From positions 83,700,001 through 83,764,000 of the forward strand of contig OX597821.1 in assembly GCA_951406725.2 (NCBI GenBank): DNA of 64,000 bases, in the 5' to 3' direction. The stretch comes from Octopus vulgaris (taxonomy: Eukaryota). The position numbers and the translations under genes were made by a program. This document shows positions 42,186 to 64,000 of the stretch, piece after piece (the stretch's first letter is position 1; every line of letters begins with the position of its first letter). The notes beneath the pieces were generated by a model. It worked only from the letters and a program-made list of their open reading frames with translations. It did no database searches and was not told the origin of the DNA.

Positions 42186-43479
42186 GAGGGGCGTTCAATA
42201 AGTAATGCCCCTGATCCACTTGAAGTTTTTTGATCTAGCTGAAATTTTGCATGTGCAATTACTTATATCTCTATAGATTAAGTAGCAAATTACAGCTCTA
42301 AACTAATTGTGGTTTCTGATTTACAGGTGTTTGAACTGAGTCAAGTGGGAAATGGAGTCTGTTGAATGTCGAGCAGTGATCCGGTTTTTGTATTTGAAAG
42401 GACGCACACCACGGGAGACGTTTGATGAAATGAAAGTAACTTATGGTGATGATGCCCCATCATATGACCTTGTAAAACGCTGGCATCGTGAATTCAAACA
42501 TGGTTGGAACTCTGTGGAATCAGCTCCCAGATGTGGTCGCCCCCTTCTGCCATTGATGAGGCATCTGTCCGTCAAGTTGAGGCTGCCATTTTGGAAGATC
42601 GACGCATAACTATTCCCGAAATAAATAGCCCATGAGGTCAAGATTAGTACCGGGTCTGTGGTAACTATCATTCATGACCATTTGCATATGCAAAAGGTGT
42701 CTGCCAGATGGATTCCCAGGTTGCTCACATCTTTCCAGAAGCAAGAACGCGTCGATTGCTTGAGGATGAATTTGGAGATGTGCCAAGAAGATGAGTCAAA
42801 ATTTTTCAAAAGACTGATTACACAGGATGAAACCTGGGTCCATCACTATGATCCTGAGACCAAAGCCCATTCAATGCAGTGGAAGCACCGTGACTACCCT
42901 CCTCCAAAGAAGGCAAGGGTGCAGCCCTCCGCTGGCAAGGTCATGCTCACAGTCTTCTGGGACCAGGACGGAGTAGTGATGACAGATTTCCTGGCAAATG
43001 GTGCCACAATTACAGGAGCCTATTATGCTTCACTTTTGAGGAAATTAAGAGAAGCTATCAAAATCAAGAGGCGGGGCAAGATCAGCAAAGGCATCCTCCT
43101 CCTGCAGGACAACGCTCTGGTCCACAACTCGCGTGTCGCCAGATCAGGAGCACAGGCGTGCGGCTATGAACTCCTCCCCCATCCCCCTACTCTTCTGACC
43201 TTGCACCCTCTGATTTTCACCTCTTCCCAGCCATGAAGTTGTTTTTGAAAGGAAAGCGTTTGCCAGATGATGCAGCCTTGATTTCTGAACTCACGTCGTG
43301 GCTGGAGGACCAAGCTGGTGTCTTCTACAGAAACGGTCTTCAGAGCTGCATCAAACGATGGGAGAAATGCGTAACTCTGAGTGGTTCCTATGTAGAAAAA
43401 GACTAATAACTGTGCCAAGTTTCGTTGCTCTACTGCTATGGGAAGTGGGTCAGGGGCATTACTTATTGAACGCCCCTCG
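42185..43479 (+). mobile_element. Full-length mariner transposon (irritans-like) in (TA)n
   Basis: ~37-bp TIR CGAGGGGCGTTCAATAAGTAATGCCCCTGAYCCACTT; TA TSD; ~1295 bp. Confidence 0.95.
42352..43406 (+). pseudogene. Frameshifted mariner DD34D transposase
   Basis: MESVECRAVIRFLYLKG.. WIPRLL, TQDETW, QDNA, PHPPY(S)SDLAPSDF spread over several frames. Confidence 0.92.
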
Positions 43480-43666
43480 TATATATATATTCTTTTATTC
43501 TTGTTTCAAACATTGGACTGCGGCTATGCTGGAGCACCGCCTTTAGTCGAACTATAGTTGAAGACACTTGCTTTGGGTGTCATGCAGTAGCACTGAACCC
43601 GGAACCATGCGGTAAGCAAACCACACAGCCACTCCTGCGCTTATAGCTACTTACCACACAGCCACT

Positions 43667-43743: not shown

Positions 43744-44189
43744 ATGCAAACTGGGACAAGAACGTAAAACACTTAGAAGACGATACAAAAAACACGGACG
43801 GGACATTCGAAGCCTTCAATCTTCAGTCAAGAACCGGATCATCGTAGCAATTTCGTCTATATATATATATATACACATATATACACACATATATATATAT
43901 ACATATATACACATATATACACATATATACACATATATACACATAACCAATACTGAAACACATTCCAAGTATGCAAACTGGGACAAGAACGTAAAACACT
44001 TAGAAGACGATACAAAAAACACGGACGGGACATTCGAAGCCTTCAATCTTCAGTCAAGAACCGGATCATCGTAGCAATTTCGTCTATATATATATATACA
44101 CATATATACACATATATACATATATACACATATATACACATATATACACATATATACACATAACCAATACTGAAACACATTCCAAGTAT
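43744..44189. repeat. Tandem duplication (first unit 227 bp) spanning the Penelope 5' junction
   Basis: atgcaaactgggac..tttcgtc-(TA/CA)n-taaccaatactgaaacacattccaagtat present twice (43744, 43971). Confidence 0.9.
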
Positions 44190-45641
44190 TGTAAGAGATG
44201 ACCTGGACCTATTAAATCATCTCCCCAAACATACCGATAAAGACACTTTATTCGTTTCCTTTGATGTAATTAATCTTTACACCACAATCCCACATGAATA
44301 TGGACTGGAAGCCATTAAATTCTGGCTGGATAAATATCCCAATGAGATCCCGGAAAGAATTAAAAAAGAATTCATCATTGAGGGCCTCAAATTTATTCTG
44401 CAAAACAACTTCATGTATTTCAATAACAACACTTACAGACAGGTTTCAGGAACTGCAATGGGTACGAAAGTTGCACCTACCTATGCAAACCTGGTGATGG
44501 CCTACCTGGAATCACATATCTATGAAAAATCCAAATATAAGTACGGCCAGTCTTTCCACAAATACCTGTTGGAGAACTGGAAACGCTACTTAGATGATTG
44601 CCTCATCCTATGGTCCCACACACTCGACCAACTTATAGACCTCAAAAACCTTATCAACAGTGTAAATAACAACATTCAATTCACAATGGAATATAGTCAG
44701 GACCAACTCCCTTTTCTTGACATTCTAATCATTAAAAAAGGCGTCAACATTGAAACTGACATCCATTACAAACCCACTGACTCTAAACAATACCTTCTAT
44801 TCACCTCCAATCACCCAAAACACACAAAGACAAATATCCCCTTCAACCTAGCGAGAAGAATCTGCACAATTGTCTCAAATGACACAACACGAAATAGAAG
44901 ACTCCGGGAACTAAGGGCAATTCTTCTCGAAAGACATTACCCGGCATCACTAGTAGACAACGGAATAGAACGGGCCAAATCAATCAACACTTAAGACCTA
45001 CGAAAACCTAAACACATCCACATTACAGTAAATAGCCTCCCCTATCTCTCAACACACAACCCAAGGAATGCAGAAGCTTACACTATTATATACAACAACA
45101 TTCCACAACTAAATCAAGACCCACGCCTGAAAAAATTACTGGCAGCTCATAAAATAATAAAAAGTAAGAGACAACCTAAATCCCTAAAAAACCTCCTCAC
45201 CAACGCAAAATTACACAACACAAACCCACCGCCCACCATCAAAAAATGTGGTCGCCCCAACTGCAGGACTTGCATCCACCTCATTGAGGAATCGACGTAC
45301 AAGTTCCGCTCGGGACACACATTCATCATAAAAAATAATTTCACGTGCGCATCAAAAAATTTACTCTACGTAATAAGGTGTGAAGGATGCCACGAAGACT
45401 ACATAGGGCAAACGAGCCTTACCCTCAGAGAAAGAATGACAGTTCACCGACAACAACTGAGGGACCCCTCCACAAGACAGATACCACTAAGTGGACACTT
45501 AGACCTTTGTGCACACAATAAGTCCCCCAAATTCTTAGTCTTCCCACTATACCAATGCTCGGACAACACCACAGACCAACACGAATAAATAGGGAAAGTA
45601 ATCTTATTCAAAAATACAGACCACAACTAAACATACTCTAA
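44164..45641 (+). pseudogene. Penelope RT-GIY-YIG polyprotein (stop at 44992, frameshift near 45580)
   Basis: SFDVINLYTTIP, GTAMGTKVAPTYANL, RYLDD, LPFLD, HYKPT; CGRPNCRTC linker; TCASKNLLYVIRCEGCHEDYIGQT..RERMTVH. Confidence 0.93.
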
Positions 45642-46067
45642 CATACCCACTAGGCACACATCCAGAGCAAGCACACAGGGACACGCGCACACTCGCAACA
45701 TATCATGCAGGCGGACACATGCACGCATCGGCACACATAGGGCACACTAGCGGGCATTGACCACACACATACGCGGCACGCACACGCATGCATTATATAT
45801 ATGTATGTTATGTATGTGTGTGAGTGTTGTGTGGGTTGTGTGTGTGTGTGTGCGCGTTGTGTGTGTGTTTGTGTGCGTGTGTGTGTGTGTGTGCATTGTG
45901 TGTGTGTATGTATTTATATGTGTATATGTTTTATATATATGTTTATATATGTGTGTGTTGTGTGTGTGTATGCATTGTATATGTGTATATGTGAGTACAT
46001 TGTTTGTGTGTGTGTGTGCAGTATATATATATGTATGTGTATATGTGTGAATATATATATATATATA

Positions 46068-46413
46068 AAGACCCCCTTCGGTCAGGCACTGACCATGGGT
46101 TTGCACCTAGAGAGATACCCTCTGAGGCACAAGTCTGGGCAAGGTTGTTTTATGGAAGACCAGCAGTCGCCCATGCATACCGGCCTCCCCTCTCCACGTC
46201 ACCGATGTTGTCCAAAGGAAAGGCAAGGGCTGATACAGCTTGGCACCTGTGACGTCGCAACTCATTTCTACAGCTGAGTGAACTGGAGCAACGTGAAATA
46301 AAGTGAAATAAAGTGCCTTGCTCAAGAACACAACACGCAGCCCCGTCCGGGATTCGAGCTCACAACCTCACGATCGTAAGCTCGACGCTCTAACCACTGA
46401 GCCATGCGCCTTC
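46068..46413 (-). mobile_element. SINE family C inserted in (TA)n
   Basis: Head ggcgcatggctcagtggttagagcg..gagctcgaatccc; close homologue at 61812-62105. Confidence 0.85.
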
Positions 46414-47995
46414 ATATATATATATGTGTGTATATATATGTGCATTATATGCATGTGCATTGTGTATATGTATATTATATGTATGTGTACATTATGTATA
46501 TATTTATGTGTATATATGCATTGTATATATGTATATTGTATGTGTGTTATATATGCATGAATACATGTATATACATTGCATGTATATATATGTATGCATT
46601 GTGTATGTGTATGTTATGTATATATATGTTATATGTATGCGTATGTGTATATGTATACATTGTATGTATGTATATTGTGTGTATATGTGGTATATTTATG
46701 TATGTGTATGTAAACACTATATATATGTATATATGTATATATGTATATGCATTGTCTATATATATATATTATATGTATGTATTGTGTATGTATGTTATAT
46801 GTATATATTGTGTATGTGTATTATATATATGCTGTGTATGTGTATTGTATGTATATATGTGTTAGGTGTATTTGTGTTGTATTTATATTATGTATGTATG
46901 TGTGCGTGTGTTGTGTGTGTGTGTGTTGTGTGTGTGTGTTATATGTGTGTATATTATATATAAATATATGTTATATTTGTGTGTTGTGTGTGTGTATTAT
47001 ATGTGTGTGCGTTGTGTGTGTGTGTGTTCTGTATGTGTGTGTGTTGTGTGTGTGTGTGTTGTGTGTGTGTATATTATGTGTGTGTGTGTGTGTTGTGTGT
47101 GTGGGGGGTGAGATATGTGTGTGTGTGTGGTGTGTGTGTGTATGATGTGTGTGTGTATATATGTATATGTAGTGTGTGTGTATGGCCCGCACGCACGCGT
47201 AGACGCGTACGCGCACGCACGCGCGCGCACGGGCGGGCACGCATATATACACACACCATCCTACCCCAAAAAATTCTTTAAACAACACACATCTATTTTC
47301 GCCACCCTGGAACCATTCAAAAACAGCCCCCCACACACGCAGACGCTTGTATACGTGTGTGTGCACGCACACAGGGACACGCACACTCACACCAGTCTCA
47401 CCTCCATACAGGCACATATATACACACGCAGCACCATGTCAAATGCCATCCACACTCATGCATGCGTACACACGCACGCACACGCACACGCGCGCGCGCA
47501 CACACACGCACACGCGCGCGCGCGCACACACACGCACACACAACACCATGACAACCACACACACTTGACAAACAGACGCCATCTGACCAAATACTACAGA
47601 CACACAGACACATCTATTCACACCACATGTATGTGTATGCACGCACACATATACGCAGAGACACACATATTCACCTCATCCTAACCCCAAAATCATTGAT
47701 GCTTGAAGGAAAGCCAAAAAAAGAAAAAAACGGGTACATCTTTTTCAATTCTACATTTTTGCTAAAACGGACAGGTCAGTAAACAACCTCGCCTTGAATT
47801 CATAATATTCTGTACTGACCCTGAGATGTATAATATATTTGTTTTAATCTTTTCTGCCCATTTTTTCAAATATTCTCATCATACTGTTGTACTTTTTTAT
47901 GTCCTTAACATGTCCCTGTTACCAAAGACTGTATATATACATGTAATGTGGCAATTTGCAACAGCCAATAATTAACGCAGCCAAACTTCCATATG

Positions 47996-48040
47996 TTACT
48001 TTTGACAATCTTTTTCCAAAGAGTGAAACCGGTTAAGTAA
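47996..48040 (+). ncRNA. Hammerhead ribozyme with compensatory U3-A8 core
   Basis: TTACTT-TTGACAA-TCTTT ttcc AAAGAGT-GAA-ACCGGT-T-AAGTAA: perfect 6-bp stem I, palindromic stem III. Confidence 0.78.
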
Positions 48041-48093
48041 ATAAACATCTTTTAAATTGCATTTTCAAACCTTCTTTCGTATATATATATAAT

Positions 48094-48322
48094 CAATTAC
48101 AAATAAGGGCAAAATAAATTCCTATGGCAATATGCTGAAAAATAGACCTTAGAATGTCTAACCACGTACAATATTTGGTTAATGTTCCCAAAACCACCCG
48201 GAAACGAAAAAAAAAAAAAGAAAAAAGAAATTAACCAAATATTGTACGTGGTTAGACGTTCTAAGGTCTACTTTTCAGCATATTGCCATAGAATTTTTTT
48301 TCTTTTGCTCTTATTTATAATT
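48094..48322. repeat. Long inverted repeat (~90-bp arms, A-rich spacer)
   Basis: ctatggcaatatgctgaaaa..aatatttggttaat versus ttaaccaaatatt..ttttcagcatattgccatag. Confidence 0.85.
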
Positions 48323-48889
48323 ATTTATATTTTCACCTTGAAAGGTATTTTAATAATATGCTGGCCACTGATAAATTATTTTTTGAAAATTTTATCCTTA
48401 TATTAGAAATATATATATATTTGTATATGGATATATATATATATATATATATATTCTTTTATTCTTTTATACGTTTCAGTCTGAAGGCTGTGACCATGCT
48501 AGGGCACCGAAGTTCATTTATTTATTTTAATTTGTCCGAGTTCTCATCTGATCTGCTGTCAGGTAAAAGATATGGGGACGTTCTGTGTTTCTCGTTCAAA
48601 GTACAGTACACGTCAGTGAAATCTTTTCATAAGAGAGTATCACGAAGTTGTCGACAGAGACCCTGCAAACATTGACATACATCCAGCTTCCATGTCGCCC
48701 CCACCGCCACAACTGAATTATTAAAGAAGTTTTCATATATTTATTATTTATTTCCTATATCAGGCTGTGTTCTATTTCAATACGCAAGGTTATCTGTAAA
48801 ACAGATAGACTATGTTTAAAATTACATTTAGTTCATTCAACTTTCAGCATGTATGTATGTATGTATGTGTGAGTGTGTGTATGTGTGTG

Positions 48890-50159: not shown

Positions 50160-51434
50160 TCAGGTCATCCCAAAAGTTGTGTCCAATTTTACCTTTTTTA
50201 AAATTGAATGAAATGTAATAGTATTTTAGAATGTCTAATGGAATTAAAAATTATTCTTATGCATTTGTGTACACCTAAACTAATTAAATATTATTTTACA
50301 GAATAAGAGAATTAAAATTTCTTTGATTAAAACCCTCTCTAACATGGAAGTATCCAAAGAGCATTTAAGGCACATAATGCTTTATGAGTACAAAAACGTA
50401 AACTCTGCAGCTGAAGCGACTCGAAACATACACTCAGTTTATGGGAAAGAATGCTTGAATGAAAGAATTTGCAGAAGATGGTTTGCAAAATTCAGAAGTG
50501 GAGATTTCAGCCTTGAAGATGAAGATCGAACAGGACGTCCAGTTGAGTTTGATGATAAGCTCCTTGAGGCATTACTTGAAGAAAATCCTGCATTATCAGT
50601 TAAAGAACTGGCAATAAAGCTTAGTTCAAACCATACAACTGTTCATCGTCATCTTCAACAACTTAGAAAGGTTCCTAAACTTAGAAAATGGGTGCCTCAT
50701 GAATTGTCCAAAAGCAACCGCAAATCCCGAGTTGACATCTGCTCTTCTCTCCATTCTTGCGAACTCATTTCACCCTTTTTGGATAGAATTGTGACTGGTG
50801 AAGAAAAATAGATCTTCTGTCAAGATGTTAAACGTCGTAAACAGTGACTTGGTAAAATGGAAAAAGCTCAACCATAACCGAGAAGGAACCTTCATGGAAA
50901 AAAGGCTCTTCTCTCTACCTGGTGGGATTGCAAAGGGGTAATTCACTTTGAATTGTTACCACCTAATGCAGCAATCAATGCTCAAGTCTACTGCCAGCAA
51001 TTAGAGCGTTTGAACCAAGCTTTGAAGAAAAAAAGACCCGCTTTAGGGAATCGGAAAGGAGTGATGTTTCATCAGGACAATGCGCGACCTCACACTGCAA
51101 AGATCACATCACAGAAGATCGAAGAGCTTGGCTGGGGAAAAATTCCTCATCCACCTTATATTCCCGACCTTGCTCTTTCAGACTATCATTTACAGAATCA
51201 TTTGGGGACATAACTTTCGCAAGCCAGGAGGAGGTCGAAACTGACATTTCAGTGTTCTTCGCTTTGAAACCAAAAGAGTTATACATCGATGGAATTAAAA
51301 TGCTTGTAAATAAATGGAAGGAAGTCATAGATAATCAGGGAAAGTACATTGATGATTAAATTTCAATTAAATATAACATCTGATCACTTGTTTTCTTTAT
51401 TCAAAATTCGGACAGAACTTATGGGATGACCTGT
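50160..51434 (+). mobile_element. Full-length mariner (cecropia/Hsmar1-like), decayed
   Basis: TIR CAGGTCATCCCAWAAGTTSTGTCC / GGACAGAACTTATGGGATGACCTG; TA TSD. Confidence 0.92.
50344..51359 (+). pseudogene. Mariner transposase with multiple stops
   Basis: MEVSKEHLRHIMLYEY.. WVPHEL, TGEEK, HQDNARPH, PHPPYIPDLALSDYHL. Confidence 0.92.
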
Positions 51435-63380: not shown

Positions 63381-63745
63381 CTTGTTTTATTTCTATTCCT
63401 GAGCGCCATACTAATACAATTGTTTGTTTGTACTCCACCTGCCTTCGTCTTTTGTTTATTTTCATAAAGCTTTCCGTTATATATATATATATATGTTGTT
63501 CTTTTATTCTTTTACTTGTTTCAGTCATTTTGATTGTGGCCATGCTGGAGCATTGCATTTTTGTCGAAGAAATCGACCTCTGGACTAATCTTTTGTAAAC
63601 CTGGTACTTATTTTATCGGTCCCTTTTGACGAACCGGTGCATTACGGGAACGTAAACACACCAACATCGGATGTGAAGCGATGGTGGAGGAACAAACACA
63701 GATACAAATACACGAATATATATATATATGGAAAAAAAGTCAAGA

Positions 63746-64000
63746 TAGAAAATGCTAAAATAATTTTATAAAAAACATTTCAGTATCGGTTTCAGCCATT
63801 GAGACTTTTTCAACTGTAAGTATGGAAAAAACTAAATTTTGGAAAAATTTTTTAAAAGTTTTTTAAAAGAATATTTGCAAAAAATCTTTTCTTTTAATTT
63901 TTCCAAAGTTTAATTGTTTTCCATACTTACATTTGAAAAAGTATCAATGACTAAAACCGGTACTGAAATGTTTTTTATAAAATTATTTTAGCATTTTCTA
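63746..64000. mobile_element. Foldback element with two divergent U3-A8 hammerheads (runs off the window end)
   Basis: ~105-bp inverted arms; HHR on the minus strand at 63781-63816 and on the plus strand at 63930-63965; arm consensus CAG-TTGAAAA-AGTC tcaat GACT-GAA-ACCGGT-A-CTG. Confidence 0.75.

Follow-up and report, generated by a model that had tools for sequence, protein, structure and literature searches.

The locus at positions 47,996 to 48,040 of this window (the whole 64,000-nucleotide stretch of Octopus vulgaris DNA that was analysed) raises the question of whether a hammerhead ribozyme with a changed catalytic core is present, whether it belongs to the Penelope-like reverse transcriptase (RT) gene upstream of it, and whether it cuts. 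On the plus strand these 45 bases are built like a minimal type I hammerhead, and the letters are exactly those of the initial annotation (TTACTT-TTGACAA-stem II-GAA-ACCGGT-T-AAGTAA). Helix I consists of six Watson-Crick pairs between TTACTT (47996-48001) and AAGTAA (48035-48040), core positions 3 to 9 are UUGACAA (48002-48008, with U3 at 48002 and A8 at 48007), and the sequence GAA at 48025-48027 supplies G12, A13 and A14. The helix II region is 16 nt long (48009-48024) and has a U at either end (U10.1 and U11.1), five pairs inside (C-G first, then U-A, U.G, U-A, and U-A), and a loop of 4. Helix III is represented by the 6-nt palindrome ACCGGU (48028-48033), for which a self-duplex is predicted at -8.3 kcal/mol; N17 is U48034, and cleavage is predicted between 48034 and 48035. 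A (TA)6 tract at 48080-48091, the 3' boundary of this copy, begins 39 bases after the hammerhead, in agreement with the distance of about 40 bp given earlier. Sequence and structural features of such a hammerhead are present: a core with a 3-8 pair, GAAA and U16.1-H17 (here UUGACAA, GAAA, and UU), helices I and II around that core, and a short palindromic helix III. The published Penelope consensus (PMC4209133) adds a trait that is not universal, an extra base after A9 together with a G10.1-C11.1 pair, whereas the octopus motif has U.U closure with C-G next.

Two results are those expected of a chance look-alike in AT-rich DNA. A search of 42-52 kb against Rfam at E values up to 10 gave 112 matches, none at the hammerhead and none at a family's gathering score, and the isolated strand of 47996-48040 folds no better than its shuffles (z +0.36). 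Against this, a covariance model made from 15 related hammerheads, with the 64-kb window left out, places 47996-48040 at the top of both strands of the window (38.0 bits, rough E 8e-6), while the next match outside a sister family scores 16.9 bits. When the window was searched with patterns for six core types, six rows at five places were returned, and the helices at 47996-48040 are the most complete. The repeat-end position of the motif, a build identical to that of related elements, and the covariance-model score refute the chance explanation for practical purposes, and its probability is close to nil.

The comparison covers 123 loci surrounding related ORFs, of which 44 are from genome bins and 79 from metagenomes (from the best 80 of 616). 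The ten proteins closest to the window ORF come without DNA, their hammerheads being unseen, and "nearest relatives" here refers to scored loci with DNA. A strict scan of the 123 loci, with all four combinations at positions 3 and 8 allowed, gave 28 matches, of which 23 are C3-G8, five are U3-A8, and none is mixed; 26 of the 28 are on the ORF strand. In 2.0 Mb of shuffled related loci the same scan found no C3-G8 or U3-A8 match and one match for each of the two mixed combinations. Under relaxed settings, the ORF strand yielded 26 C3-G8, nine U3-A8, and no mixed matches, with some doubtful rows. Most of the 123 loci have no match; in many of them the 3' flank is too short, and 30, all of one bin, represent a distant family. 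The initial annotation held that positions 3 and 8 pair and that U3-A8 is a compensatory change, and the pair does covary in the relatives: among 24 aligned hammerheads, chosen by a pattern permitting all four combinations, it is C-G in 21, U-A in three, and unpaired in none. The hammerhead structure covaries in sets of 15 and 29 related rows, in which the rows were chosen for or fitted to the structure. Judged from these sequences, U3-A8 has replaced, in a lineage-specific manner, the C3-G8 pair found in the nearest relatives.

The U.U closure of stem II at 10.1/11.1, which had been offered as a possibility, is real and common to the nearest scored relatives of the ORF. Five loci (L051, L059, L061, L075, and L077) have U..U closing helix II, C-G next, and GAA ACCGGU U, but carry C3-G8. 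The U..U and C-G start also occurs in L001, and L052 has U..U with U-A, so that seven related loci share U..U; the palindrome ACCGGU is present in eight (L045, L047, L051, L059, L061, L070, L075, and L077). In a quick tree of 70 rows, with no named reference included, the window ORF falls in a 24-row clade with the same five loci at an SH-aLRT of only 80. This clade also includes L048, L056, and L070, whose helix II builds differ, and ACCGGU (L045, L047) and U..U (L001, L052) are found outside it too, so the clade joining the window ORF to the U.U/ACCGGU loci is weakly supported. U3-A8 occurs in at least four separate places in the tree: the window, L050, L065/L066, and L100 and L107, each near C3-G8 rows. 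In L100 a U3-A8 hammerhead is present in both of the 375-nt direct repeats around the RT-endonuclease (RT-EN) ORF. L068 was rejected as a firm U3-A8 switch, its label coming from a relaxed match and a C3-G8 match lying on the other strand of the locus.

Several relatives depart further from the usual build. L054 has, by eye, a possible U3.G8 motif with an extra base that both the strict and the relaxed scans missed. In the U3-A8 hammerhead at L050:2657-2725 the helix II region reaches an unusual length of 45 nt and the palindrome has 8 nt, and the near-identical L049 has lost the hammerhead motif. At L098:1862-1893 a hammerhead-like sequence has three bases replacing helix II, yet keeps a 6-bp helix I and a 6-nt palindrome. 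The 44 loci in bacterial genome bins (L001-L044) encode Penelope-like RTs, and these are probably animal host DNA carried into the bins.

Placement of contigs shows that the hammerhead lies at the 3' end (pLTR-like) of a many-copy repeat family, at 47540-48079 on the plus strand, as expected from the earlier view of it as the 3' end of an element. Contigs of four of the 24 listed runs, under three organism labels, were placed on 47540-48860 and gave 1816, 1832, 804, and 261 records per run, most of them 80-99% alike. The flank beyond 48530 is covered by one contig in each of two runs, and the hundreds of records on 47540-48085 set against this single-contig flank indicate the end of a large repeat family. 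Summed contig depth climbs toward 48079 and drops after it, which is a hint only, since such depth is not a copy number and does not allow the parts to be ranked. Among the 40 of 108 variant rows that were listed, none falls in 48002-48008 or 48025-48033 in any of the four runs, in keeping with the expectation that U3 and A8 would be conserved among copies. The sole core change among those 40 rows is U17 to A, which the consensus permits and which is carried by 32, 47, 13, and 5 contigs in the four runs. Rows at 47990 and 47992 were listed, so a majority of C3-G8 copies would likely have been listed as well; a minority of C3-G8 or mixed copies may exist in the family, given 40 listed rows of 108. 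By BLAST there is no second copy of 47660-48085 in the 64-kb window, and the same segment has no DNA-level match to the related loci beyond simple repeats.

Some copies continue differently at either end. Four contigs of run X13 have non-repetitive letters in place of (TA)6 past the boundary (48085), and this continuation resembles, by eye, the sequence after the hammerhead in L051 and L077, the pattern expected of a pLTR followed directly by another unit. When 20 bases of the X13 loose end were compared with the 64-kb window, allowing up to three mismatches, nothing matched. Upstream, loose contig ends before 47993 show that some contigs share the hammerhead but differ in the sequence preceding it. 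In each of the four runs there are contigs whose sequence returns from about 47956-47989 to 47794-47833 (within 47794-47989), which suggests that some copies have a tandem repeat of about 155 bp just 5' of the hammerhead. Directly 3' of (TA)6, at 48087-48400, is a hairpin-shaped, MITE-like repeat that is multi-copy in the runs, with arms at 48112-48183 and 48230-48301 that are 93% complementary.

The ORF upstream (44164-45641, plus strand) encodes an RT followed by a C-terminal GIY-YIG domain (RVT_1 E 1.6e-8; GIY-YIG E 0.0013, under the Pfam cut-off) and is both 5'-truncated and broken. It shares 75% identity with residues 280-752 of P0001, a protein of 772 residues, and starts in the middle of the RT with the first ~279 residues missing; it has an in-frame stop at 44992-44994, a frameshift near 45579, and the family stop at 45639-45641. 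The protein clusters that contain P0001-P0004 have no assigned names. Most of the named relatives among the best 120 of 644 matches are proteins of bivalves or belong to bins of mollusc symbionts. The linker CGRPNCRTC (45247-45273, plus strand) has the form C-x4-C-x2-C, within the CX2-5CxxC pattern, and lies 24 residues from the Cys before the GIY motif, while the CCHH residues are C129, C132, H151, and H168 of the 44995 frame. In the account of the Neptune clade in PMC8557442, the spacer from the linker to GIY is long in Neptune and short in Nematis, and by eye the spacer of the window ORF resembles that of Neptune, unlike the Nematis rows of Fig. S2 of that paper. The likeness to Neptune elements as described there extends to GIY-YIG with CCHH, the linker spacing, the RT motifs of fish and frog Neptune sequences (Fig. 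S1), and a boundary (TA)n. Short motifs from the window were not found in the supplement of that paper. The description of the ORF as Neptune-like stands by the linker, CCHH, and RT motifs compared by eye. The hammerhead is downstream of this ORF in the same sense, as had been stated, but the element had also been called autonomous, and this fails for the present copy: the RT begins at P0001 residue 280, carries one in-frame stop and one frameshift, and is without an upstream pLTR.

Whether the hammerhead and the ORF belong to one element is less direct, as the two are separated by 2.36 kb of mostly microsatellite sequence, compared with 55-730 nt in most relatives, and contigs were placed on 47540-48860 only. 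The intervening stretch (45642-47539, plus strand), a putative 3' UTR by its composition, contains an insert of about 345 bp that is not microsatellite (about 46068-46412), flanked by (TA)n runs, which may be SINE-like. The link is favoured by the shared strand, the lack of an intervening hammerhead between the ORF and 48002 in pattern and covariance-model scans, the build shared with relatives of the ORF, and a CA-rich unit behind the ORF stop (45660-45700) that recurs at 47356-47394. The match between the two CA-rich units is modest, but it is the best among about 2,550 window tiles (score 42, against 33). On this evidence the hammerhead and the ORF at 44.2-45.6 kb are likely to be parts of one element.

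The competing explanation accepts the hammerhead as real but derives it from another Penelope family, or a non-coding derivative, of which the 3' end alone inserted into the microsatellite 2 kb behind the ORF, the ORF's own 3' end having been lost or lying elsewhere. The gap, three to ten times as long as usual, consists mostly of microsatellite, a common target. The records placed, on 47540-48860, do not bridge it, and the loose ends before 47993 belong to contigs that have the hammerhead in common and not the sequence before it. Solitary 3' ends are common in the window (an inverted pair at 63.7-64.0 kb and a piece at 43.7-44.1 kb), and the minimal hammerheads of animal genomes are reported in PMC4209133 to be mostly solitary. 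A separate insertion would leave unexplained a build that matches the nearest scored relatives of this very ORF, the recurrence of the CA-rich unit, and the fact that the ORF is trailed by no other hammerhead; in addition, near-identical contigs extend the repeat upstream to 47540 and beyond. Such an insertion is considered unlikely, and the hammerhead, minimal type I with U3-A8 and U.U closure, is probably the pLTR ribozyme of the Neptune-like ORF family.

On its own, the 48-kb hammerhead would be unable to form a stable helix III. If transcripts are tandem, two copies could pair through the palindrome ACCGGU to form a double hammerhead, which would cut slowly after 48034 and set free element RNA of unit length; with U3-A8, the geometry of the active site is predicted to be preserved. 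Cleavage as dimers and low rates have been reported for the class (PMC4209133), and the class model is also given in a review (PMC6765202). The predicted monomer energy is -1.9 kcal/mol for the hammerhead fold and -4.3 kcal/mol for the minimum. For the dimer, the double hammerhead is predicted at -10.7 to -12.5 kcal/mol and the minimum at -20.7 kcal/mol, a gap of 8-10 kcal/mol, compared with 0-8 kcal/mol in nine relatives; another helix II register lies 1.8 kcal/mol lower in the dimer. A competing 8-bp helix is predicted between 47996-48003 and the GAA side (48019-48026). The active fold of this copy is thus predicted to be disfavoured, which speaks against brisk activity, and dimer cleavage and a role in the element cycle are attributed to it by analogy with the class. 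Insertion of a Poseidon element in vitro did not depend on hammerhead cleavage, and the cut site was not an end point of any reads (PMC11167929), which makes any role in the cycle putative for the class as a whole.

These results bear on the proposal that the sequence descends from a hammerhead, no longer cuts usefully, and is kept only as a promoter or 3'-end signal. On that proposal U3 would let helix I and the core pair with 48019-48026 in an 8-bp off-state helix, and the predicted minimum does contain this pairing, with the active dimer 8-10 kcal/mol above it. Two weak features, U3-A8 and U.U, occur together, minimal hammerheads of animals are reported to cut poorly even as dimers (PMC4209133), and insertion in one in vitro system did without cleavage (PMC11167929). 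Loss of cutting does not account for the pattern of variation, however: N17 varies only within bases that permit cleavage, the rest of the core has no change among the 40 listed of 108 variant rows, and a sister family retains the core while its helices differ. Moreover, activity in vitro has been reported for U3-A8 ribozymes, and among mismatches at 10.1/11.1 U.U is tolerated best (PMC3088659); secondary-structure energies omit tertiary contacts and proteins. A hammerhead that has ceased to cut is accordingly judged improbable, and slow cleavage by a paired hammerhead is the preferred reading.

Most of these features have precedents. U3-A8 Penelope hammerheads have been known since 2014 and are an accepted variant, with about 1,300 hits in Schistosoma mansoni, a species to which two rows of Fig. 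S3 belong (Cervera and De la Pena, PMC4209133). The S. mansoni Cercyon hammerheads of that study are likewise type I with a short palindromic helix III, lie near the 3' end of a Penelope-like ORF, and have U3-A8; the octopus hammerhead differs in its palindrome of 6 nt, its Neptune-like host element, and a far longer distance from ORF to ribozyme. Covariation of C3-G8 to U3-A8 and a stem II starting with U10.1.U11.1 are both natural (Perreault et al. 2011, PMC3088659), but the text section of that paper compared here, apart from its figures, does not report them together in the same ribozyme, nor in a Penelope element. The hammerheads of non-LTR retrozymes (bioRxiv 10.64898/2026.07.22.740005) are also type I and related to those of Penelope pLTRs; retrozymes, however, form tandem arrays with a hammerhead in each unit, whereas the 48-kb motif is present as a single copy in the window. 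In the literature searched, which covered text and not figures, no report was found of U3-A8 and U10.1.U11.1 together in a Neptune-like element, and Lunse et al. may describe the build. The 48-kb hammerhead is a new example of a published kind, as both core variants and the Penelope association are already in print, and the novelty initially ascribed to the variant core was overrated. The related point that standard searches miss UUGANAA cores holds more broadly, since CUGANGA/G10.1-C11.1 descriptors and Rfam overlook whole families of Penelope hammerheads. The locus is a naturally occurring double variant, and its nearest relatives depart from it at the 3-8 pair alone, which offers a ready pair for testing core tolerance; the same pair could show whether cleavage is under selection in Penelope elements.

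The relatives' coding arrangement may outweigh the ribozyme in importance. Six loci (L045, L050, L051, L053, L055, and L070) have a long ORF1 between the hammerhead and the RT-EN ORF, and homologues of ORF1 are present in 15 loci. Behind the hammerhead of these related elements, ORF1 has 430-570 codons (L045:71-1372, L051:3088-4113 and 1-585, L053:238-1956, L055:306-2003, and L070:347-1783). In all five loci examined the RT-EN ORF is in the -1 frame and overlaps ORF1 by 43-130 nt, and in each the overlap holds U_UUU_UUA (U_UUU_UUG in L070) in the ORF1 register. This arrangement predicts that RT-EN of these relatives is made by programmed -1 ribosomal frameshifting from ORF1. ORF1 has no Pfam family above the cut-off and no Atlas hit over 0.77, and there is no match to the relatives' ORF1 in the 64-kb window. 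Proteins P0001-P0005 start with methionine close to the conserved start and the window copy is truncated, so ORF1 is seen in relatives only. In the abstract of Craig et al. 2021 (PMC8557442), canonical elements have a single ORF, unlike these close relatives of the octopus ORF with ORF1 in a -1 arrangement. The literature search found no report of an ORF1 frameshift in Neptune elements, although Fig. 1 of PMC8557442, seen through its legend, may itself show one, as the legend gives an optional frameshifted ORF1 for a clade that it leaves unnamed. A tentative and, taken as a whole, doubtful account would combine these observations: an abundant Penelope family has fixed U3-A8 with U10.1.U11.1 and still cuts, the U3 off-state helix silences lone copies until they pair, Penelope lineages have repeatedly switched the 3-8 pair, and RT-EN of the Neptune-like group to which the family belongs is produced by -1 frameshifting from an ORF1 just behind the ribozyme.

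The window contains other traces of related elements. The sister family is represented by an inverted pair of 3' ends at 63717-64000. The minus-strand hammerhead (63778-63819; 28.5 bits, E 8e-4) has U3-A8, one palindrome change, and an AT-rich tail ending at (TA)n, and the second, inverted one (63927-63968, plus strand; 19.8 bits) keeps U3-A8 but has G12 changed to A. Helices I and II of both are unlike those of the 48-kb hammerhead, and each copy carries one damaging change. A 227-bp tandem duplication at 43744-44197 spans a repeat piece of about 115 bp, a TA/CA microsatellite, and the truncated start of the ORF. The ~115-bp piece (43.7-44.1 kb) has no match to 47.5-48.1 kb, and on the minus strand it starts with a possible 3' half of another minimal hammerhead. 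From their translations, the segments at 42625-43480 and 50284-51359 are presumably two decayed mariner-type transposase remnants.
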